This document shows positions 48,066 through 60,531 of a stretch of 60,854 bases of DNA, in pieces (the first letter of the stretch is position 1; each line of letters starts with the position of its first letter). Source of the DNA: Fidelibacterota bacterium (GTDB lineage Bacteria; Fidelibacterota; Marinisomatia; Marinisomatales; TCS55); NCBI GenBank assembly GCA_046861385.1, contig JBHHTW010000010.1:1-60854 (forward strand). Direction: 5' to 3'. Under the pieces are notes generated by a model. It searched no databases. It saw only the letters and a program-made list of their open reading frames with translations, and was not told where the DNA came from. The position numbers and the translations under genes were made by a program.

Positions 48066-48496
48066 GAATACTGATTATTAATGGACCAAATCTAAATTTA
48101 CTTGGAAAACGTGAACCTGATATTTACGGTTCTGAAACATTATCTGATATTGAATCCTGGTTGGCTGCTACACAGGAAGCAAGTTCACATGATATTGAAT
48201 GGTTTCAGTCCAATCATGAAGGTAAAATCATCGATCGAATTCACGAAGCGATGGAAAATGTTGAAGGAATTATAATAAACCCCGGTGCTTTTACTCACTA
48301 TTCATACGCCATTCGAGATGCGATTGCTTCCTCAAATATTCCTACAGTAGAAGTTCATTTAAGTGATATAGAAGACAGAGAGGCTTTCAGGAAGGTTTCC
48401 GTGATAAAAGATGTATGCATTGATCAGGTTAAAGGGTTGGGGAAAAAAGGTTATTTAAAGGGTTTAAATTTACTGATTCAATTACTTCAAAAATAA
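48062..48496 (+). CDS. aroQ: Type II 3-dehydroquinate dehydratase
   Basis: [38 protein letters not shown]. Confidence 0.97.
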
Positions 48497-48565
48497 AAAA
48501 AACAGATTTATTGATATTTTCATTTGCTCCGTTTTCTACTTAATCTCTACCTTCCCGGTCACATT

Positions 48566-48640
48566 ATGAACATGCGACGCCGACCTAACCATCATCATCG
48601 CCCCTTTACTCAAAGAGGAAGGTCAGGCCGAGCTACATAA
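48566..48640 (+). CDS. hisL: Attenuator leader peptide MNMRRRPNHHHRPFTQRGRSGRAT
   Basis: 24-codon ORF with three tandem His codons (cat cat cat), followed by a terminator and then hisG. Confidence 0.8.
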   Translation: MNMRRRPNHHHRPFTQRGRSGRAT

Positions 48641-48663
48641 TTTTTTAACAAAATATTAAATTC

Positions 48664-48701
48664 AAAAAAGCTCCCCGGCTTTCCCGGGGGGCTTTTTTTT
48701 T
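48664..48701 (+). terminator. Attenuator terminator upstream of hisG
   Basis: aaaaaagctccccgg-ctttc-ccggggggc followed by nine T. Confidence 0.88.
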
Positions 48702-48716
48702 ACATAAAGGTCACAC

Positions 48717-49592
48717 ATGGACAAACAATTAAAAATGGGTTTACCGAAAGGCAGCTTGCAGGAAACAACACTGAAACTGTTGAAAAAAGCAGGGTGGAAT
48801 TTCACTTTATCAAGCAGAGCATATAAGCCCTATTGCGACGATCCGGATTTAGAAGCATGGCTTATCCGGGCACAAGAAATGTCGGTATATGTTGAACAAG
48901 GCGTTTTTGATATGGGCATCACAGGCAAAGATTGGATTGAAGAAAATGAATCGGATGTTGTGGAGGTCTGTGAATTAATATATGCAAAATCCTACATGCG
49001 CCCGGTTCGTTGGGTATTAGCCGTTCCGGAAAAAAGTTCGATTCAATCTGTGAAAGATCTGGAAGGGAAACGAATCAGCACCGAAGTTATCAATATAACA
49101 AAAAAATATTTGTCGAAAAATAAAGTAGACGCTTACGTTGAATTTTCCTGGGGGGCTACAGAAATAAAGCCAGGCATTCTAGTGGATGCCATTGTGGAAG
49201 TTACGGAAACAGGTTCATCCTTAAGAGCAAACAACCTCCGGATTGTGGAAACAGTAATGGAATCAAGCACCCGGTTAATTGCCAATAAGGATTCATATCG
49301 TGATCCATGGAAAAAAATGAAAATTGAAAATATTGCCAGACTGCTCCAAAGCAGTATTATGGCCACAGCCAGAGTCGGGTTAAAAATGAATGTCACCGAT
49401 CAAAACCTGGAATCATTATTGTCTGTCCTCCCTGCCATGAAAAAACCAACCATCAGTCAATTAACCAATGGTTCGGGAGTGGCTGTAGAAATAATCGTGG
49501 AAGAAAAAATTGTACGGGATTTTATTCCATTGTTGATCGAAAGCGGAGCAACAGATATTATTGAATATCCTTTAAACAAAGTGATTCCCTGA
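48717..49592 (+). CDS. hisG: ATP phosphoribosyltransferase (long form)
   Basis: [36 protein letters not shown]-terminal ACT-like domain. Confidence 0.95.
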
Positions 49593-50863
49593 TGATGCAA
49601 TTCCTGGAAAACAAATCGATACTTCTGTCCCGGTTGAATAATGGGCGTTTTCTTGCTCAATCAGAATACAATCGTGTGGAAAATATTATTGCATCCGTTC
49701 AGGATGATGGCGACAAAGGTTTAAGAAAATTTACTCTGGAATTTGATGGAATTTCCTTAAAAAATATTCAGGTACCTGAAAAAATCTTGTTAGAAAATAG
49801 TGTATTAAAAAACAAAGATTTACATGAAGCCATCACACAAGCGGCAGAAAATATTCGATTATTCCATGAAAAACAAATGCCTTCAGGTTTTCATCTCACT
49901 CAACCGGATGGAACGCATGTTACTTTCAACTGGAGACCAATCGGCCGGGTGGGTATTTATATTCCCGGGGGGAATTATCCATTATTGTCCACAGTACTCA
50001 TGAATGTCATCCCGGCACAAGTCGCTGGTGTAAAAGAAATCATTGTGTGCACGCCGCCACAGAAGAACGGAAGCCCTGACCCGGCAATTCTAAATGTGTG
50101 TGAGTTATTAGGCATTAATGAAATTTACCAAGTTGGTGGCGCTCAGGCCATTGCGGCCATGGCGCTAGGCACACAATCCATTCCGAAAGTGGATAAAATT
50201 ACCGGTCCGGGAAATCGATATGTCAATGCAGCCAAATATCTTCTCTCCAACCGTGTTGGCATAGATATGATTGCCGGGCCAACAGAGTTAATTGTGGTAG
50301 CTGATGAAACCGCCAATCCGAATTTTATTGCCGCCGATCTTATTTCCCAGGCAGAACATGATGTGGATGCGATGACATTATTATTGTGTCCTGATCAAAC
50401 AATTATTAACAACACGATGAATAAAATAGAATGTTTACTGAAACAGACAGATACCAAAATGATGGCAGAAAAATCCTTGAGAAATAATGGATTTATTTTA
50501 AAAACAGAATCCATCAATGAATGTATTTCCATTTCCAATCAGATCGCTCCAGAACATCTATCCCTTCACTTAAACAATCCGGAAAAAGTTCAACACCAAT
50601 TCATTGCAGGTGTCATATTTCTTGGTCAACAAACGCCTGTGGCCTGGGGAGATTACTGGGCAGGGCCGAACCATACACTCCCGACTTCCGGGACAGCTAC
50701 CTTTAGAGGACTACTAACTGTATTTGATTTTCTTGTTCCATTTTCTACCATTGAAGCAAATATTTCCAGAGAAAACAAGGGTCATGTTATTTCTATGGCG
50801 AATGGGGAGGGCCTTTCAGGCCATGCCTTATCGGTCAAAACCAGGGGGATGAATCATGATTGA
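49592..50863 (+). CDS. hisD: Histidinol dehydrogenase
   Basis: GIYIPGG, GGAQAIAA, GPGNRYV, IDMIAGPTE, SQAEHD, APEHL, GPNHTLPT. Confidence 0.95.
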   Translation: MMQFLENKSILLSRLNNGRFLAQSEYNRVENIIASVQDDGDKGLRKFTLEFDGISLKNIQVPEKILLENSVLKNKDLHEAITQAAENIRLFHEKQMPSGFHLTQPDGTHVTFNWRPIGRVGIYIPGGNYPLLSTVLMNVIPAQVAGVKEIIVCTPPQKNGSPDPAILNVCELLGINEIYQVGGAQAIAAMALGTQSIPKVDKITGPGNRYVNAAKYLLSNRVGIDMIAGPTELIVVADETANPNFIAADLISQAEHDVDAMTLLLCPDQTIINNTMNKIECLLKQTDTKMMAEKSLRNNGFILKTESINECISISNQIAPEHLSLHLNNPEKVQHQFIAGVIFLGQQTPVAWGDYWAGPNHTLPTSGTATFRGLLTVFDFLVPFSTIEANISRENKGHVISMANGEGLSGHALSVKTRGMNHD

Positions 50864-51908
50864 AAAATGGATAAAACAGGATATATTGAAACAACAGCCC
50901 TATTCCGTTAAAATGGTTGATCACAAAATTAAACTAAACCAGAATGAATCACCCTGGGATTGGCCTGATGACATTAAAAAAGTGATTACAGATCGCCTTT
51001 TCTCCGTGGAATGGAATCGGTATCCTAGTCTCAATCCAGAACGCCTTAGGGCAACCATAGCGTCTTATCACTCCCTGTCTGCCAATCAGGTATTGATTGG
51101 TAATGGTTCCAACGAAATTCTTCAAGCGATTATGAATGCAACCATTCTGCCGGGTGATTATGTTTGTACTCTGTCACCAACTTTCACTATCTATCGGATA
51201 TTGGCAGAGCAAAGAGGCGGCCGAATCATCTCTTCATTTTTATCTTCCTCTTTTGAGGTAGACAGTACAGATTTGCTGGCCAAATCATCTAAATCAAGAT
51301 TAACCATTATTTGTAATCCGAATTCACCCACCGGAACGTTTTATCCACTTTCATCGATAGAAATGTTGTTAAAAAACACACCGGGATTGGTTGTAATCGA
51401 TGAAGCTTACGCCGATTTTTCAGGAAAAACGGTCATGGATTTCTTATCTCTTTATCCCAACCTAATTATCACCCGGACTTTTTCGAAAGCATTTGCCCTG
51501 GCAGGATTCAGGGTTGGGTATGGGTTGATGGCACCGGATTTAGCGATTGAAATACAAAAATGCTTACTTCCTTTTCATTTCGATATACCTTCCATGGTTG
51601 CCCTGGAAACCATATTAGATTATCCCGGGCTGGTTCGAAAAAGGGTAACTAAAATCATTAAAGAAAGAGACAGGCTGATTACGGAATTAAACTTAATCGA
51701 AGGTATTTCTGCCTTGGGTTCACACACCAATTTTTTCCTGTTAAAATCAACCCACGGCGCGGAGAAAATATTTGAATTTCTGGCAAATAAAAGTATCCTG
51801 ATCCGAGATGTTTCCTCCTATCCCGGGCTGGAAGCCATGGTGAGAATTACAGTCGGAACCCCCGATGAAAATAATACTTTAATCCGGGCTTTTCAGGAAA
51901 TGTCATGA
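50856..51908 (+). CDS. hisC: Histidinol-phosphate aminotransferase
   Basis: KLNQNESP, NRYP, GNGSNE, PNSPTG, DEAY, RTFSKAFALAGFRVG; his operon position. Confidence 0.92.
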   Translation: MIEKWIKQDILKQQPYSVKMVDHKIKLNQNESPWDWPDDIKKVITDRLFSVEWNRYPSLNPERLRATIASYHSLSANQVLIGNGSNEILQAIMNATILPGDYVCTLSPTFTIYRILAEQRGGRIISSFLSSSFEVDSTDLLAKSSKSRLTIICNPNSPTGTFYPLSSIEMLLKNTPGLVVIDEAYADFSGKTVMDFLSLYPNLIITRTFSKAFALAGFRVGYGLMAPDLAIEIQKCLLPFHFDIPSMVALETILDYPGLVRKRVTKIIKERDRLITELNLIEGISALGSHTNFFLLKSTHGAEKIFEFLANKSILIRDVSSYPGLEAMVRITVGTPDENNTLIRAFQEMS

Positions 51909-52711
51909 AGTACGATGGTTTTATCTTTGATATTGATGGTGTATTACTGGATACAAGTCAATCTTTTACTCAAGCCGTATTGCTGGCAGTTAAAACAGCA
52001 ACCGGATCCGGGTTATTTAATGAAAAACATATTGTACAATTAAAAGGTATTCCCGGGTTTAATAACGATTGGGATGTGGCAGTTGCCGGAGCAATTTGGA
52101 CCGGGAAAAGCGATGGTGAATCTTTCAATGATTTTATTCACAAGCTGGAACAATATCATGGCGGCACTGAAGCACTACAGAGTTTGGCGCCTTCTGATTA
52201 CAAAATATTTAAGGAGCCTGTTCCCCGACTAGTGATGGAAGCCTACGGTGGAACCAGTGCCTGCCAGACTCTTTATGGGTTTGAACCCCAGACAATCCTG
52301 GTTGAAGGGATGTGGAAAAATGAAATTTCTTTTGTATCCCCGGAAATGATCTATCCTTATTTACCTGTTTCCGGTATTGTATCAGGCAGGAACAGAACTG
52401 AAATGGAACTGGCATTTAAAATCCTTGGCTGGGAATTACCCTGGGAGCGGGTGGCTTTTTCAGATATCCCTGCGTTTAATAAACCCAATCCAGCATATCT
52501 GGTTCGTATCATGAACAGAATGAATTGTCAATATCCTGTCTTTCTGGGGGATTCTAGAGATGATTTGGAATTGGTAAAAAACTATATTAATCAAACAGGA
52601 AATCCAATGGACTTTTGCTGCGTGGGAATTCAACATGGGATTAAGGAGTTTAGTCTCAGGGTTAACCATATTTCTGAATTTTTCAATAACGTTGGGCAAT
52701 ATCATGGTTGA
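51905..52711 (+). CDS. HAD-superfamily hydrolase, candidate histidinol-phosphatase
   Basis: FDIDGV, FNNDWD, KPNP, GDSRDD motifs; between hisC and monofunctional hisB. Confidence 0.75.
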   Translation: MKYDGFIFDIDGVLLDTSQSFTQAVLLAVKTATGSGLFNEKHIVQLKGIPGFNNDWDVAVAGAIWTGKSDGESFNDFIHKLEQYHGGTEALQSLAPSDYKIFKEPVPRLVMEAYGGTSACQTLYGFEPQTILVEGMWKNEISFVSPEMIYPYLPVSGIVSGRNRTEMELAFKILGWELPWERVAFSDIPAFNKPNPAYLVRIMNRMNCQYPVFLGDSRDDLELVKNYINQTGNPMDFCCVGIQHGIKEFSLRVNHISEFFNNVGQYHG

Positions 52712-53276
52712 GTTTTCAAGAAAAACAAATGAGACCAGTATTCAATTATCGCTGAATATTTATGGAGAAAAGAATATTAACGTCAAAACAGGCATCGGTT
52801 TTTTTGATCATATGATTACATCAATGGCATTTTGGGCCGGATGGGACTTAACCCTGAGATGTCAGGGAGATCTTGAAATTGACACCCATCATACAGTGGA
52901 AGATGTTGGACTTTCTTTGGGAAAGGCTTTTCATACCATGTGGTTTAAACATCAAAATATCGTCCGGATCGCCCATGCTTTTTGTCCGCTGGACGATGCA
53001 TTGACACGGGTAGTCGTTGATGTGTGCAATCGCCCATACAGTACATTTGATGCAACATTCAATGTTGAAAAAGTCGGTGCTTTTGAAACGGCGATGACAG
53101 GACATTTTTTCAGATCATTTGCACAGGAAGGGCGCATTACCCAGCACATACGGGTCCTCCACGGACACAATGCTCACCATATGATTGAAACCATATTTAA
53201 AGGATTAGGATTGGCGTTAAAAAGGGCCTGTACGTTAACAGACGTGGGAACCCAGTCAACAAAAGGATATTTATGA
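52704..53276 (+). CDS. hisB: Imidazoleglycerol-phosphate dehydratase (monofunctional)
   Basis: RKTNET, TGIGFFDHM, DTHHTVED, NAHHMIE, STKG; ATG at 52704. Confidence 0.95.
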   Translation: MVEFSRKTNETSIQLSLNIYGEKNINVKTGIGFFDHMITSMAFWAGWDLTLRCQGDLEIDTHHTVEDVGLSLGKAFHTMWFKHQNIVRIAHAFCPLDDALTRVVVDVCNRPYSTFDATFNVEKVGAFETAMTGHFFRSFAQEGRITQHIRVLHGHNAHHMIETIFKGLGLALKRACTLTDVGTQSTKGYL

Positions 53277-53869
53277 TTGGAATCATTGATTACGGAATAG
53301 GAAATATCGGATCTCTGACCAATGCATTCCGGCGGTTAAATATATCCTGCCTCGTTTCCGGGAATTCAAAGGAATTGAATCAATGTGACCAATTGGTTTT
53401 GCCCGGGGTCGGTGCTTTTCGGCCAGCCATGAATATGTTATCCACTCTCCGGTTGGGTCCGTTCATTTACACTTGGGGAATGGAGGGAAAACCCATCTTA
53501 GGCATATGTCTGGGAATGCAGCTTCTTTTTTCAGAAAGTATGGAAAATGGTCTTACGTCTGGATTGGATATTATTCCTGGCACCGTTTCTCCACTCATTG
53601 GAGGTAAGAGAAAAATTCATATCGGATGGAATCAGGTAAAACCAACACAAAATTATTCCCGATTCCAGACGCCGGGATATGCATATTTTGTTCATTCATT
53701 CATTTGCAGGCCGGCTGAAGAATCCCATATTATTGCCGAAACAGAATATGGGAGCATTTTCCCCAGCATGGTTCAAAAAGGAAATGTGATAGGTGTTCAG
53801 TTTCACCCGGAAAAATCACAGGAATTCGGAATGGAAATATTGAGGAGGTTTTCCGTTGAATTCATTTAG
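53273..53869 (+). CDS. hisH: IGP synthase glutaminase subunit
   Basis: DYGIGN, LPGVGAF, GICLGMQ, HIGWN, YFVHS, QFHPEKS. Confidence 0.96.
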   Translation: MIGIIDYGIGNIGSLTNAFRRLNISCLVSGNSKELNQCDQLVLPGVGAFRPAMNMLSTLRLGPFIYTWGMEGKPILGICLGMQLLFSESMENGLTSGLDIIPGTVSPLIGGKRKIHIGWNQVKPTQNYSRFQTPGYAYFVHSFICRPAEESHIIAETEYGSIFPSMVQKGNVIGVQFHPEKSQEFGMEILRRFSVEFI

Positions 53870-54578
53870 AGTCATTCCGGCAATTGATATTATGGGAGGA
53901 AAATGTGTTCGTCTCACTCAAGGCAGTTATTCGCGAAAAACGATTTACAAAACGGATCCAGAAACGGTGGCCAAACAATTTTTAGATAATGGATTCGATT
54001 TCGTTCATGTCGTTGATTTGGATGGAGCAAAAACGGGGAAACCGGTGAATTTGATATCCGTTGAAAAAATTTCCGCCACCGGGATTACCATTGAGTTGGG
54101 CGGTGGACTCCGAAATCAAGACCATTTAATGCAGGCAATGGATGCGGGAGCATCCGACTTAATCATCGGAACAAAACTCCTGGATTTGGAAACAGTCATA
54201 TCTGATTGGATTACAATGTTTCCCGGCCACCTTATTGCCGGAATTGATGCAAAAAATGGAATGGTTGCTGTGCAGGGATGGGAAAAAAAATCAATTATTA
54301 CTGCGATAGAATTAATAAAAAAAATAGAAGAGATGGGATTTTCAAAATTGATATACACCGATATTGAAAAGGATGGTGTTCTGGCCGGACCGAATATTAA
54401 AGAAATAAAAAAAATAGCCAACGCCACATCCATCCCTCTTATTGCCTCCGGCGGGGTGAGTTCAATGGAAGATATTGAAAAAATAAAATCCATTTCAAAT
54501 CAAAACATTCGTGGCGTGATTGTTGGGAAAGCTATTTACGAAAATAAATTATCGTTGGCGGCATTAAGATCATGCTGA
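53856..54578 (+). CDS. hisA: ProFAR isomerase
   Basis: PAIDIMGGKCVRLTQG, HVVDLDGA, GGGLR, TDIEKDG, ASGG; TTG start. Confidence 0.95.
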   Translation: MNSFRVIPAIDIMGGKCVRLTQGSYSRKTIYKTDPETVAKQFLDNGFDFVHVVDLDGAKTGKPVNLISVEKISATGITIELGGGLRNQDHLMQAMDAGASDLIIGTKLLDLETVISDWITMFPGHLIAGIDAKNGMVAVQGWEKKSIITAIELIKKIEEMGFSKLIYTDIEKDGVLAGPNIKEIKKIANATSIPLIASGGVSSMEDIEKIKSISNQNIRGVIVGKAIYENKLSLAALRSC

Positions 54579-55342
54579 CCAAACGAATCATTCCCTGTCT
54601 GGATATTAAGGATGGAGCGGTAGTGAAGGGAGTTCATTTTCGTCACCTTACCCAAGAAGGGGATCCGATTGAACTGGCATCAAAATACTCTGATGATGGT
54701 GCCGATGAACTGGTTTTTCTTGATATTACTGCTTCTTTGGAATCACGGAAGCATGTGGTTGATTTGGTCCGGGAAGTATCTAAATCCGTTTTTATTCCAT
54801 TGACCGTTGGAGGAGGAATCCGGACATTAAAAGATATTTCAGAATTGTTGGATGCAGGGGCAGATAAAGTGTCGATCAATTCAGCCGCTCTCAATAATCC
54901 TGATCTCTTGAGCAATGTTTCCGGAAAATTCGGTTCCCAGTGTATCGTGCTTGCTGTCGATGTAAAATTCGACAAACATCAATGGACCGTCTTTTCCCAT
55001 GGCGGAACCAGGAGAACCAATCAAGAAGCCATCCTTTGGACCAAAGAGGGTGAAGACAGAGGTGTTGGAGAAATATTACTAACCAGCATGGACGCAGATG
55101 GAACACAAGGGGGAATTGATCTGGAAATAACACGCAATGTCAGTCGACAAATTTCTATTCCGGTCATTGCTTCCGGAGGAATCGGCCGGTTGGAGCATTT
55201 TAAAGAAGCATTTGAAACAGGTGAAGCAGATGCGGTTCTGGCTGCTTCTGTCTTTCACCGTAACAAATTTTCATTAACACAGGTAAAAGCATATTTAAAA
55301 CAAAACGGATTCATCATCCGGGAACCAGGGAGATATCAGTGA
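54572..55342 (+). CDS. hisF: IGP synthase cyclase subunit
   Basis: MLTKRIIPCLD, GADELVFLDI, VGGGI, ADKVSINS, TSMDADGT, IASGG. Confidence 0.97.
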   Translation: MLTKRIIPCLDIKDGAVVKGVHFRHLTQEGDPIELASKYSDDGADELVFLDITASLESRKHVVDLVREVSKSVFIPLTVGGGIRTLKDISELLDAGADKVSINSAALNNPDLLSNVSGKFGSQCIVLAVDVKFDKHQWTVFSHGGTRRTNQEAILWTKEGEDRGVGEILLTSMDADGTQGGIDLEITRNVSRQISIPVIASGGIGRLEHFKEAFETGEADAVLAASVFHRNKFSLTQVKAYLKQNGFIIREPGRYQ

Positions 55343-55728
55343 AAACGATTGAGGAAACCGATGAATTGAAATTAGATTTTCGAAAATTAAAACAAATTGG
55401 AATGATTGAGGAAAATGTCATTCCTGTGGTCGTTCAAAATGTTCAAACAGACGAAGTTGTTATGGTGGCTTATGTCAATCAAATGGCGTTGGATTTTACT
55501 TTAAAAAACCATCTGGCTACTTTTTGGAGCACTTCCCGGAATGAACTTTGGGTCAAAGGAGCCAGTTCAGGAGACGGGTTGGAAGTGGTGGGCGTTCGGG
55601 TCAATTGCGATCAGAACTCCCTGTTATACCGTGTCCGGCTATCAAAAAAGAATGCCTGTCACACCCACAGACCCTCGTGTTATTATCGAAAAATTAAATT
55701 AAACAAACTGGAGTATATTCATGAATAA
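55339..55728 (+). CDS. hisI: Phosphoribosyl-AMP cyclohydrolase (no HisE domain)
   Basis: [34 protein letters not shown]...SCYY. Confidence 0.9.
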
Positions 55729-56974
55729 AAAAGTTGTTCTGGCTTACAGCGGCGGATTAGATACGTCTGTTATTTTGAAGTGGCTGGCCAATAAAGGATA
55801 CGAAGTTATTTGCTTTATCGGAAATGTGGGGCAAAAAGAAGATTTCTCGACAGTGGAGAAAAAAGCACTTTCCACCGGTGCATCCTCCGTATATACGGAG
55901 GATCTTCAAACAGAATTTGTCACCGATTATATTTTTCCTGCTTTAAAAGGGAATGCCCTTTACGAAGGCCGGTATTTGCTGGGAACATCCCTGGCCAGAC
56001 CTTTACTGGCCAAAAAACAAATTGATATCGCTGCCCGGGAAGGTGCGGGGTACGTTTCCCACGGATCAACGGGAAAAGGAAATGATCAGGTTCGATTTGA
56101 ATTGGCCTATTATGCCCTGAATCCGGAAATTAAGGTGATCGCTCCGTGGAAAGATCCGGAGTTTTTAGACCAGTTCAAAGGTCGAACCGATATGATTCAT
56201 TACGCCAAAAAATGGAACATTGAAATAACCGCATCAAAAAAACGGCCCTATAGTGAAGATGAAAACTTAATGCACATCAGTCACGAAGCAGGCGTATTAG
56301 AAGATCCTGCGCTCCGGGCAAATGATGATGTATTCACGATTTCCAATACAGTCCAAAATACTCCTGACAGGGAGACATTAATTGAGATTCAATTTGAAAA
56401 CGGGGTTCCTGTCCTGGTAAAAAATCTATCAGATGGGACTCAAAAAACTGATCCATTGGATTTATTTTTATACCTGAATAAATTGGGTGGAGAAAACGCC
56501 ATTGGTCAATTGGATATGGTGGAAAATCGCTATATCGGCATTAAATCCAGAGGAATATATGAGACGCCTGGGGGAACCATATTATGGGCTGCACACCGGG
56601 ATCTGGAAGGCATTAGTATGGATAAAGAAGTCATGCATCTCAGAGATATGCTTATCCCAAAATTTTCTGAGTTAATTTATAATGGTTTCTGGTTTTCCCC
56701 GGAAATGGACTTTATTATGAGCGCATTTAATAAAAGTCAGGAAGCCATTAATGGAACGGTTCGTATGGCACTTTATAAAGGGAATATGATTCCTGCCGGA
56801 AGAGAATCCGCCACTTCTCTGTATGACCAGAATTTATCCAGTATGGATATTGAAGGAGGTTTTAATGCCATGGACTCTAAAGGGTTTATTAACATTAATG
56901 CCATTCGGTTGAAAGCGCACCATATTGTGCTTCATAACAATAAACCTTATCGCTGGCGGAAAGTGAATTCATGA
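55721..56974 (+). CDS. argG: Argininosuccinate synthase
   Basis: [60 protein letters not shown]. Confidence 0.97.
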
Positions 56975-58158
56975 AGAAACTATGGGATAAAGGCTATGAT
57001 TTAGATCAGGCTATTGAAGCATTTACGGTCGGAAATGATTTCCAATTAGACCAGTCATTGGTTTATTATGATTGCCTGGCATCAATCGCCCATGTAAACA
57101 TGCTGGAGAAAATGGATATATTGACTTCCGAAGAAAAAATAAATCTTGTTCAAACATTAAACCATATTATTGATTTGAACCGTACTGGAAAATTTGAAAT
57201 TAAACCGGCGCAGGAAGATTGCCACACAGCCATTGAAATGTTTCTGATTGAATCATTGGGTGAAACTGGCAAAAAAATCCATACCGCCAGATCTAGAAAT
57301 GACCAGGTGTTGACTGCCCTGAGACTTTATTACAAAGACCAGTTAGAGAATGTTCGACAGTTGATTAAACAATTGAAAGGAGCAATCAATAAATTTATCA
57401 TTCAATATGGAAATATCCTCTATCCCGGTTACACGCATATGAGAAAAGCCATGCCCTCCTCTTTCCATTTATGGGGAAACAGCATTATTGATTCCATGTC
57501 TGATAACCTTCAGATATTAAATGCCATTTATACGCTCATCGATCAATCTCCCCTGGGAACAGCGGCCGGTTATGGGGTTCCTCTGGACATTGATCGAAAA
57601 TCTACAGCCGACGAACTGGCCTTTTCCCGTATTCAGGAGAATCCCATATATACCCAGAATAGCCGGGGGAAATTTGAAAAATCCATTTTGCATATATTAT
57701 CTCAAATTATGCTCGATTTAAACCGGATTGCTTCAGATTTAATTTTATTCAGTATGGAAGAATTCGGATACGTTGAATTACCGGATGAATTCTGTACAGG
57801 AAGTTCCATTATGCCCCAGAAAAAAAATCCGGATGTATTGGAACTCCTGAGAGCAAAATACCATGTAGTTGCTTCATACGAGTTTCAGTTATCCGGACTG
57901 GTCTCTGACCTTATTTCCGGCTATAACAGGGATGTACAATTAACAAAGGAACCGGTGATGAATAGTTTTTCAATCGTGACGGCCAGCCTGGGTATCACCC
58001 AAATCCTATTTCAATCCCTGAAGGTCAATAAGGATAAATGCCAGGAAGGGATGACGGATGAATTATTTGCCACCGAACGGGTCTATCAACTGGTTAAAAA
58101 AGGTATGCCTTTTCGGGAAGCTTATCAGAAAGTAGCCAAATCAATCAAAAAAAGTTGA
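56971..58158 (+). CDS. argH: Argininosuccinate lyase (short, 395 aa)
   Basis: [46 protein letters not shown]. Confidence 0.93.
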
Positions 58159-59303
58159 TGAAACGGACCTTATCTCCATTAAACCGAATAGTCGTCAAAA
58201 TCGGCAGTTCAAGTCTTTGCCATGAAAATGGGAAAATCAACCCTATTTTTATTAAGACCCTGTCAAGCGATATTGCATATTTGATTGACCGGGGGATACA
58301 GGTCGTTTTGGTATCCAGCGGTGCCGTTGCTTCCGGTCGCCATTTGTTAAATGAAAATGGATCCTCCATCGAAAATAAACAAGCAGCAGCAGCAATAGGA
58401 CAACCCTTGCTTCTTGCGGCATTCCGCCAGTTTTTCGAAGCGCATAAAATAAAAACGGCACAAGTACTATTAACCCATAATGATTTGCAAGACAGATCCA
58501 GATATCTCAGCGCCCGAAATACGTTGGAAATATTGTTGATACACGGAATTATACCCATTATTAATGAAAATGATACTGTCAGTACTGAAGAAATTCAATT
58601 CAGTGACAATGATTTTCTGGCTGCATTATGTACCAATTTGGTCAGTGCCGATCTCTTTATCATTCTATCCAATATTGAGGGAATTGGCAGGGAAGATCCA
58701 TCTGTAAATCCCAACACTTCCATATACAAAACGTTGACTGTTCATGAATTGGAGGAGTTGAAAAAACAATTCCCCCATCAAAAAAGTGGAGGAATCAGCC
58801 GGGGAGGAATTTTCACCAAACTGGAAGCACCCATCATGGCCGCCCAATATGGCGTTCCCACTATTATTGCCAATAGCAGGGCTGAGTCCATTCTACAACG
58901 AATCGTCAATGGAGAAGATATCGGGACCTACGTGAAACCTGTAGAAACAAATCTCAATTCAAAAAAGGCTTATATTGCCCATGCCATAAAGCCGAAGGCA
59001 AAAATTATTATCGATGAAGGAGCGGCCTACGCCATCCAAACTAACAAGGCCAGTCTGCTGCCCTCCGGAATCCAAAAAACAGAAGGAAATTTCCAAAGAG
59101 GAGACGGCGTCCTCTGTTGCCTGTCCAATGGTACGGAAATAGCCCGGGGTATTGTGGAGTACGATCGGAGTGAAATTGATCAAATTTCCGGAAAACAATC
59201 CAGGGAAATTGAGTCCATTCTAGGATTTCAACGCCGCCGGGGAATCATCCATCGGGATAATATGGTTATAACCAAAGGAATCACCTCACATGAATTTAAA
59301 TAA
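58158..59303 (+). CDS. proB: Glutamate 5-kinase with PUA domain
   Basis: VKIGSS, VSSGAV, QAAAAIGQ, NENDTV, DND, GGIFTK, SLLPSGI, IHRDN. Confidence 0.96.
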   Translation: MKRTLSPLNRIVVKIGSSSLCHENGKINPIFIKTLSSDIAYLIDRGIQVVLVSSGAVASGRHLLNENGSSIENKQAAAAIGQPLLLAAFRQFFEAHKIKTAQVLLTHNDLQDRSRYLSARNTLEILLIHGIIPIINENDTVSTEEIQFSDNDFLAALCTNLVSADLFIILSNIEGIGREDPSVNPNTSIYKTLTVHELEELKKQFPHQKSGGISRGGIFTKLEAPIMAAQYGVPTIIANSRAESILQRIVNGEDIGTYVKPVETNLNSKKAYIAHAIKPKAKIIIDEGAAYAIQTNKASLLPSGIQKTEGNFQRGDGVLCCLSNGTEIARGIVEYDRSEIDQISGKQSREIESILGFQRRRGIIHRDNMVITKGITSHEFK

Positions 59304-60531
59304 AATCGGAGAAGAAATAAAAAGAGCCAGCCTTCACCTGCCAATGGTGACGACAAAACAAAAACAAGTTATTTTACGGGAAATGGCAGAAGAAATAATC
59401 GCCAACAAAAATACCATTCAGGAAGAAAACAATAAAGATATTCGTCGGGCACAATCAAATGGCTTATCATCAGCTATGATTGATCGCCTTCGTTTGACTG
59501 GTACCCGAATTTCCGGGATGGCAGAAAGTATCAGAGAAGTTGCAGAACTTCCTGATCCGGTTGGAGAAATAACGGAAGATTACTACAGACCCAATGGGCT
59601 TAGAGTTCAACGCAGAAGAATTCCATTGGGAGTCATTGGTGTGATATATGAATCAAGACCCAACGTTACGGTTGAAGCGGCTTCCCTGTGTTTTTATGCT
59701 GGCAATGGCTTGTTGCTCAGAGGAGGATCGGAAGCGTTTCATTCGAATCAGATATTGGTGGAGATATTAAAATCAGTATTAAAAAATCGTGGCTTGGAAA
59801 ATATAATCGATATGGTTCCTTCAACCGATAGAGCCAATGTGGATAAAATGGCAAAAATGAATGATGTACTTGATGTTATTATCCCCAGGGGAGGAGAAGG
59901 ACTGATACGGCATATTTATAAAGTAGCCACGGTTCCCGTCATTGCACATTATAAAGGGAATTGTCATATGTTTGTGGATGCGTCTGCAGAGGTTGATCAC
60001 GCCAGAGCAATTGTAATGAATGGCAAGGTTCAGCGCCCGGGAGTGTGTAATGCCCTGGAAACGTTACTCATTCATCAGGACATCGCTGATTCTTTCCTGC
60101 CCGAAATGTTGGATGAACTAATAACTGCCGGTGTAGAAATAAGGGGGTGCAAACAAACACAAAAATATTCTGATAATATTAAACCAGCGTCAGATATAGA
60201 TTATGATACGGAATTCCTTAATCTCATTTTAGCAGTAAAAGTAGTAGAAAATATACAAGAAGCCATTGATCATATTCATCATTACGGCAGTAATCATACA
60301 GAAGGAATTGTCAGCCGGGATCCACAATCCATCGATCAATTTATTCAGGCCCTGGACAGTTCAGCTATTATGGTGAATGCTTCCACACGTTTTAACGATG
60401 GCGGTCAATTGGGTCTGGGAGCTGAAATTGGAATCAGTACGACCAAATTGCATTCTTTCGGTCCCATGGGGCTTCGGGAACTGACGACCACAAAGTTCGT
60501 CGTAACCGGGGATGGCCAGGTTCGAGAGTAA
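59290..60531 (+). CDS. proA: Gamma-glutamyl phosphate reductase
   Basis: PLGVIGVIYESRPNVT, LRGGSEA, IPRGG, CNALETLL, NASTRF, AEIGIST, GPMGL. Confidence 0.97.
   Translation: MNLNKIGEEIKRASLHLPMVTTKQKQVILREMAEEIIANKNTIQEENNKDIRRAQSNGLSSAMIDRLRLTGTRISGMAESIREVAELPDPVGEITEDYYRPNGLRVQRRRIPLGVIGVIYESRPNVTVEAASLCFYAGNGLLLRGGSEAFHSNQILVEILKSVLKNRGLENIIDMVPSTDRANVDKMAKMNDVLDVIIPRGGEGLIRHIYKVATVPVIAHYKGNCHMFVDASAEVDHARAIVMNGKVQRPGVCNALETLLIHQDIADSFLPEMLDELITAGVEIRGCKQTQKYSDNIKPASDIDYDTEFLNLILAVKVVENIQEAIDHIHHYGSNHTEGIVSRDPQSIDQFIQALDSSAIMVNASTRFNDGGQLGLGAEIGISTTKLHSFGPMGLRELTTTKFVVTGDGQVRE

Follow-up and report, generated by a model that had tools for sequence, protein, structure and literature searches.

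Why would a transcript for histidine biosynthesis, which in this genome runs on without a gap into argG, argH, proB and proA, be headed by a short open reading frame with more arginine than histidine codons, and to which amino acid shortages would such a leader respond? This is the question raised by the locus analysed here, which lies in a metagenome-assembled genome of Marinimicrobia (SAR406) that is 97.85% complete. The analysis covered the whole stretch of 60,854 nucleotides (hereafter, the window) together with relatives from the same order and phylum, for which G-numbers denote genomes, L-numbers loci and C-numbers contigs (G000 being the source genome). The first-pass annotation of this DNA had proposed a trivalent attenuator, in which stalling of the ribosome on histidine, arginine or proline codons opens the operon. 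The attenuator itself and its histidine and arginine signals find support in the folding of the leader and in the way arginine runs track the linked genes, and the proline signal is not supported, since proline codons fail to track proBA. The reading that we favour, with moderate confidence, is that a ribosome-mediated attenuator controls a single hisGDC-HAD-hisBHAFI-argGH-proBA transcript and most likely senses charged tRNA-His and charged tRNA-Arg.

The operon was delimited by combining NCBIfam matches with the coordinates of the open reading frames. All its genes lie on the plus strand and start at 48717 (hisG), 49592 (hisD), 50856 (hisC), 51905 (an HAD-type hydrolase, probable histidinol-phosphatase), 52635 (hisB), 53273 (hisH), 53856 (hisA), 54572 (hisF), 55339 (hisI) and 55721 (argG), followed by argH (56971-58158), proB (from 58155) and proA (59290-60531). 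The histidine genes thus occupy 48717-55728, the argG and argH block 55721-58158 and the proB and proA block 58155-60531. The overlaps at the block borders and within the distal blocks amount to 8 nt between hisI and argG, 4 nt between argG and argH, 4 nt between argH and proB and 14 nt between proB and proA. Because all junctions from hisG to proA overlap or abut, intergenic terminators have no space, and the earlier description of one uninterrupted his-argGH-proBA operon agrees with this gap-free arrangement. A single promoter-like match is found ahead of argG (55658-55686), in a generic scan that returned 41 matches against 41.6 in shuffled sequences, and argG may have its own internal promoter. 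The argH product is 395 aa long and aligns to positions 11-392 of a 455-position argH model; since the relatives have the same short form, a naturally shortened C-terminus is more probable than a truncation.

The leader open reading frame (48566-48640, plus strand; ATG at 48566, TAA at 48638-48640) comprises 24 codons plus the stop and translates as MNMRRRPNHHHRPFTQRGRSGRAT. Translation reproduced the codon count and clustering reported earlier, with seven Arg, three His and two Pro codons arranged as RRR-P-N-HHH-R-P, and codons 4-12 (RRR-P-N-HHH-R) make up the regulatory window of the leader. The Arg triplet, CGA CGC CGA (48575-48583, plus strand), overlaps the 5′ arm of the protector helix described below, and is followed by three consecutive CAT His codons (48590-48598, plus strand). 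A role of the Arg codons as rare codons was considered and rejected: the genome uses its Arg codons evenly (CGA 20%, CGC 12%), and those of the leader are therefore not rare. Upstream of the reading frame, a putative promoter (48523-48551, plus strand) combines a −35-like TTTGCT (48523-48528), a 17-nt spacer and a −10-like TCTACC (48546-48551). The block is conserved among the aligned upstream regions of eight relatives, with TTGACA…TATATT or TTTGCT…TATACT at the equivalent position, and its assignment as a promoter is to be read against the same generic scan, with 41 matches for 41.6 in shuffles. A promoter at this position would give a 5′ UTR of about 8-12 nt, without a Shine-Dalgarno sequence.

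The claim that a terminator follows the leader is borne out by a hairpin of −24.3 kcal/mol that ends 15 nt before hisG. This intrinsic terminator (48664-48701, plus strand) is separated from the leader reading frame by an AU-rich spacer and consists of a 5′ arm (48664-48678, segment 3), a loop (48679-48683), a 3′ arm (48684-48698) and a run of nine U residues (48693-48701), with GCUCCCCGG/CCGGGGGGC as its GC core. It is conserved, with two compensatory pairs, in an alignment of the 11 closest leaders. The minimum free energy (MFE) structure of the full leader reaches −42.1 kcal/mol (z = −3.56; none of 200 shuffles folded equally well) and contains the protector, or 1:2, helix of the first-pass annotation, in which segment 1 (GCCGACCU, 48579-48586, plus strand) pairs with 48620-48628. 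The 3′ arm of this helix belongs to segment 2 (GAAGGUCAGGCCGAGCU, 48617-48634, plus strand), a switch strand that can serve either as the protector 3′ arm or as the 5′ arm of an antiterminator.

The effect of the ribosome on this choice was modelled by folding the transcript up to the terminator loop with a 28-nt footprint forced to remain unpaired. These masked folds recovered the switch between the two alternatives, protector and antiterminator, that had been put forward for folding. With Arg4, Arg5, Arg6, Pro7, His9, His11 or Arg12 in the A site, segment 2 engages the terminator at its 5′ arm and loop, through 48625-48634 with 48669-48673 and 48677-48681 or through GAAGGUC with GGCUUUC. The antiterminator originally drawn between 48627-48634 and 48669-48679 thus appears in the MFE structure, shifted by one base, once the footprint masks codons 4-12. 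When the A site is instead placed on Arg19, Arg22 or the stop codon, the footprint covers segment 2 and the antiterminator is absent. Although the count of seven Arg codons was correct, masked folding indicates that only four of them (R4, R5, R6 and R12) are placed where a stall favours read-through; R17, R19 and R22 are themselves part of the antiterminator strand. The same position dependence was seen in 8 of the 11 leaders modelled and was less clean in G013, G026 and G119.

Across 23 leaders, the stalled-state folds paired between 3/9 and 10/12 of the terminator-arm bases with upstream sequence, and their z-scores were modest (−0.2 to −2.8). In alignment A1, which holds the 11 closest leaders, 91.9% of the cells at the antiterminator positions are paired, versus 30-56% with slid partners; the changes seen on this alignment are one-sided, with no compensatory double changes in the antiterminator. 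Applied to these 11 leaders, RNAalifold recovered the terminator and an inner hairpin; the long-range protector, which varies in register from one subfamily to another, was not recovered.

If they act like the well-known attenuators of the his and trp operons, these computed structures would decide termination as follows. Transcription would start a few bases before the leader reading frame. A ribosome that reaches the stop codon (48638) would cover segment 2 (48617-48634), so that the terminator at 48664-48701 folds and transcription ends 15 nt before hisG. A ribosome stalled with Arg4-6, His9-11 or Arg12 in the A site would instead sit on segment 1 (48579-48586), and the freed segment 2 would bind the terminator at its 5′ arm and loop (AGGCCGAGCU with AGCUC…GGCUU, or the GAAGGUC alternative with GGCUUUC). 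RNA polymerase would then continue into the operon. Under this scheme, the Arg run would be a regulatory addition that accompanies argGH (and proBA) behind the his genes, and the Pro codons would be non-regulatory.

How general is the leader? A search for hisG across 233 genomes of the order gave 24 with the gene, and in 23 of these it is preceded by a His-cluster reading frame and a terminator. The shared layout places an AU-rich spacer after the His-codon reading frame and ends in a terminator at a distance of 13-20 nt from hisG; in G001 and G005 the terminator lies about 180 nt before the gene. In these two genomes (L012:350-532, L002), and also at L137, an insert of about 180 nt with inverted-repeat-like ends separates terminator and hisG, and the other relatives are without it. 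A leader with the same layout was present at all 15 additional hisG loci from other families of the phylum, and among the close metagenome contigs that were added it was readable in 15 of 16. The His cluster is found in the leaders of all 38 relatives examined.

The exception among the 24 hisG-bearing genomes is G113, where argH is directly upstream of hisG. This genome carries the reversed fusion argG-argH-hisG-hisD-hisC (L222 at the end of C67; L219/L043 on C90), and in the leader before its argG, which has a terminator behind it, Arg codons are interspersed with His codons (K-R-H-Q-R-H). It was not counted as a reciprocal composite leader because the junction spans two contigs and because a weak hairpin with eight U residues separates argH from hisG.

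The His cluster is common to all these leaders, and the question is what the Arg codons add to it. The position of argG relative to hisG was determined in all loci with enough sequence, and codons were tabulated up to the end of the His cluster. In argGH-linked operons, where argG follows hisI, an Arg run lies directly 5′ of the His cluster in nine of nine distinct leaders (16 loci), as RRR in seven and RR in two, with three to five His codons each. Of the 19 distinct leaders (21 loci) that head his-only or argG-remnant operons, only two have such a run; the other 17 have at most one Arg before or at the His cluster and three to seven His codons. Both exceptions, L141/L143/L144 (RRR) and L145 (RR), belong to one clade nested among linked relatives, and L141/L143/L144 retain RRR though hisI is there followed by proC-asnB-ilvD and not by argG. 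This clade is evidently a recent rearrangement, because its hisG is about 0.02 substitutions per site from that of the linked L140 and because the junction contains a gene remnant and a duplicated leader promoter.

When the loci were placed on a hisG tree, five independent pairs differed in linkage; the Arg run differed in the predicted direction in four of them, in the opposite direction in none and not at all in one, which gives p = 0.125 in a sign test that five pairs are too few to bring to 0.05. Within the genus of the source genome, G003, which is 88% complete and yielded no argG, reads QRQ-HHHHH versus RRR-(H/P)N-H(H/Y)H in its congeners. The argG-remnant genomes G026 and G120 read H-R-HHH versus RR-HHH in their sisters G054 and G036; G013, where argG lies elsewhere, reads R-HN-HHHHH versus RR-HHH in L149; and L145 reads RRH versus RRR in its relatives. 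These comparisons suggest that the Arg run tracks argGH linkage, that is, that codons for a second amino acid in the regulatory window covary with operon content, as far as an underpowered set of contrasts can indicate.

Several features of the gene neighbourhood after hisI were recorded alongside. In G026 (L017) and G120 (L039/L220), hisI is followed by what is left of argG, about 160 codons interrupted by stops; since the search of these two genomes yielded no further argG, arginine synthesis has apparently been lost. The gap between hisI and proC in L141 (14536-14889; also in L143 and L144) holds the truncated start of a PALP gene (PLP-dependent, cysteine-synthase-like) that elsewhere lies between hisI and argG, as well as a second copy of the his promoter and first leader codons, 79% identical to the original and ending in an early stop, so that in these three loci a copy of the leader promoter now stands directly before proC. 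The PALP gene occurs sporadically between hisI and argG (L147:16993-18009; L011:8005-8997; remnants in L040 and L141), follows hisI in G003 and is frameshifted in G119. Downstream of proA in G194 (L035), the order proA-proC-asnB-ilvD includes spacers of 249 nt before asnB and 386 nt before ilvD, which could hold further attenuators.

The alternative that survives best is that the attenuator responds to histidine only and that the Arg codons, without regulatory role, are there for a G+C-rich segment 1 or through shared ancestry. We consider this unlikely, though it accounts for several observations. The His cluster is the sole universally conserved codon feature of the leaders. The Arg triplet overlaps segment 1, and since CGN codons bring G+C to this segment of an AT-rich leader, an RNA-level reason for them is possible; however, segment 1 is built without Arg runs in 17 of the 19 leaders of his-only or argG-remnant operons. 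Three of the seven Arg codons are clearly structural, and the 'GRS' codons in segment 2 are also kept in the his-only G003. As regards the triplet, its Arg identity in linked operons survives synonymous nucleotide changes. The leader alignment has it as CGA-CGC-CGA here and as CGA-CGA-CGC in six rows, four of them confirmed as argGH-linked and the other two being G031 and L139, whose linkage is unknown; in the unlinked L141 it reads CGC-CGC-CGC. Shared ancestry would fit the RRR that stays in L141/L143/L144 and the non-significant contrast test, but each sufficiently diverged loss of argGH shows the Arg codons replaced, mostly by His, at the same positions. The bivalent reading, in turn, has to accommodate that p value, the RRR of L141/L143/L144, the antiterminator without double changes and a leader with three His codons versus four to eight in the his-only relatives.

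A further argument against a purely histidine-responsive leader comes from the same clade, in which Arg-run leaders precede argGH where these genes stand alone. The search of the order (233 genomes) located argG in 37, and 22 loci in which it stands alone were examined. Fifteen of them (L050 in G013, L052 in G009, L053 in G135, L234-L238, L240-L245 and L248) carry a leader of 21-27 codons some 160 nt ahead of argG, in which 4-9 codons specify Arg, with RR or RRR runs among them; its terminator lies 15-47 nt from the gene. The remaining seven are without an Arg leader: two are cut by the contig end, one has an ArgR-like gene upstream, two have a Lys-rich mini-ORF and a terminator, one has a terminator only and one has neither. 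The stand-alone leaders are mostly located downstream of a carB-like gene and contain at most two scattered His and 0-2 Pro codons, and proB follows argH where the sequence extends far enough (G009). They represent a candidate class of arginine attenuators for the order, and the clade may thus use Arg-codon attenuation independently of the his leader. Like the leader of the window, they combine a short reading frame, an AU-rich spacer, a terminator before the first gene, RR or RRR runs and CGN codons, and the one in G013 even has the string RRRPNH in common with it. Whereas they would control argGH only, the leader of the window joins an Arg run and a His run before hisG.

Within the source genome, the search for a second Arg-run leader, for example before argF on contig C42, found none. 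A genome-wide scan for short reading frames with triple codon runs before strong terminators returned only the leader described here, a Leu run on C72 and a Met run on C9. On the minus strand of C72, the reading frame with the LLL run ends 33 nt before a terminator whose T-run lies at about 139557 (reverse-complement coordinate), and it may be a Leu-type leader. The argF gene (C42, 6049-6945, minus strand) has a perfect 28-nt palindromic hairpin about 30-60 nt upstream, with neither a T-run nor an Arg leader.

Taken together with the bivalent reading, these comparisons lead to a broader proposal, towards which we lean only slightly: the leaders of this phylum may be re-codable 'codon cassettes', in which an Arg run is acquired or kept when the his genes fuse with argGH-proBA and is overwritten by His codons when argGH is lost. 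If so, arginine, including in the stand-alone leaders, would be a bona fide attenuation signal for arginine biosynthesis, and the loci would form a natural evolutionary series of regulatory codons that follow operon content.

The trivalent version, in which a stall on Pro7 or Pro13 during proline shortage would also open the operon, appears quite improbable. It can point to the proBA genes within the operon, to the position of both codons within the stretch where a stalled ribosome frees the antiterminator, and to a Pro7 change specific to the source genome, its relatives having His there. Yet the two Pro codons are single and form no run, and two or more Pro in 24 codons are expected about 25% of the time at the 4.0% Pro of this genome (binomial), which is chance level. 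P13 (in 'PFT') is kept in the his-only relatives G003, L141 and L145, P7 is absent from eight of the nine distinct leaders linked to proBA/argGH, and the other proBA-linked leaders have 0-1 Pro in the regulatory window. The low Pro content of the stand-alone argGH leaders, with proB behind argH where seen, also speaks against it. The expectation that Arg and Pro codons would follow their linked genes in relatives therefore holds for Arg (9/9 linked versus 2/19 unlinked leaders) and fails for Pro, and a regulatory role of the Pro codons is not supported by the comparison of leaders.

The presence of proBA in the operon may have another explanation. The source genome, 97.85% complete, has argF and proC, and neither argB nor argC reached the cut-off in it. 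Because of this, proBA may serve arginine synthesis, glutamate semialdehyde from ProBA being a possible precursor of ornithine; in that case, proBA would likely need no signal of its own and may fall under the Arg signal. A search for an ornithine aminotransferase returned three class-III aminotransferases, all below the family cut-off.

That the element is non-regulatory, with the hairpin as the terminator of the upstream aroB-aroQ genes and the short reading frame as a chance frame, is hardly credible: the terminator does lie some 170 nt beyond the end of aroQ (stop at 48496) and looks bidirectional because A- and U-tracts flank both sides, but the reading frame, His cluster, spacing and close terminator recur before hisG phylum-wide, with aroQ upstream in some loci only, the fold has the low z-score given above, and because of this conservation across order and phylum the element is, on comparative grounds, a conserved his leader and neither a chance frame nor merely the aroQ terminator.

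Leader-peptide attenuation is a textbook mechanism, and arginine as a signal would extend the list of amino acids whose synthesis is controlled in this way. It would also show attenuation in routine use in the abundant, uncultured marine SAR406, which appears to employ it without Shine-Dalgarno-led leaders. In the literature searched, including PMC2965389 and PMC8632094, no description of an arginine leader-peptide attenuator for arginine biosynthesis was found, an absence that carries little weight because subscription journals were little covered. The closest arginine sensor is orf34 upstream of Salmonella speF, where two consecutive Arg codons sense low arginine by ribosome pausing and select an alternative mRNA structure (PMC6386406). 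The two systems have in common consecutive Arg codons in an upstream reading frame, in the present case as a probable arginine sensor. Unlike the leader described here, orf34 works through RNase G sensitivity, Rho and access to the ribosome binding site on a polyamine gene and has no intrinsic terminator before an amino acid biosynthesis operon (PMC6386406).

By mechanism, the element is most likely a classic leader-peptide attenuator that lies outside the Rfam His_leader family. In a permissive search it scored 24.6 bits against RF00514, versus a gathering score of 49, with sub-threshold matches driven by the terminator, and no Rfam family reached its gathering score in the window. In the enterobacterial his leader, the position of the ribosome chooses between termination and read-through. 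The leader described here resembles hisL in its short reading frame with consecutive His codons, its predicted, mutually exclusive 1:2, 2:3 and 3:4 hairpins and a terminator just before hisG. It differs from the E. coli leader, which has seven His codons, in having three, immediately preceded by an Arg triplet, and it differs from enterobacterial hisL in that it belongs to the phylum Marinimicrobia, displays no sequence or structure homology and precedes an operon that also carries argGH and proBA.

Multivalent attenuators are known from Enterobacteria, where those of the thr (Thr and Ile), ilvGMEDA (Ile, Leu and Val) and ilvBN (Val and Leu) operons relieve termination upon shortage of any of their amino acids. 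The leader studied here would be like them in that one leader peptide contains regulatory codons for more than one amino acid. If its arginine role is real, it would be a compact natural part of about 140 nt and potentially a two-input OR gate. The codon content of such leaders could be read as an annotation of the genes on the transcript, one that changes with the operon, and would offer an inexpensive way, based on comparison, to predict which genes of metagenome-assembled genomes are co-transcribed and by what logic they are regulated. While the known multivalent cases unite the amino acids of one branched pathway, the composite sensor proposed here would serve two unrelated pathways joined by operon fusion and, unlike the thr and ilv attenuators, its codons would change as the operon gains or loses the arg genes.
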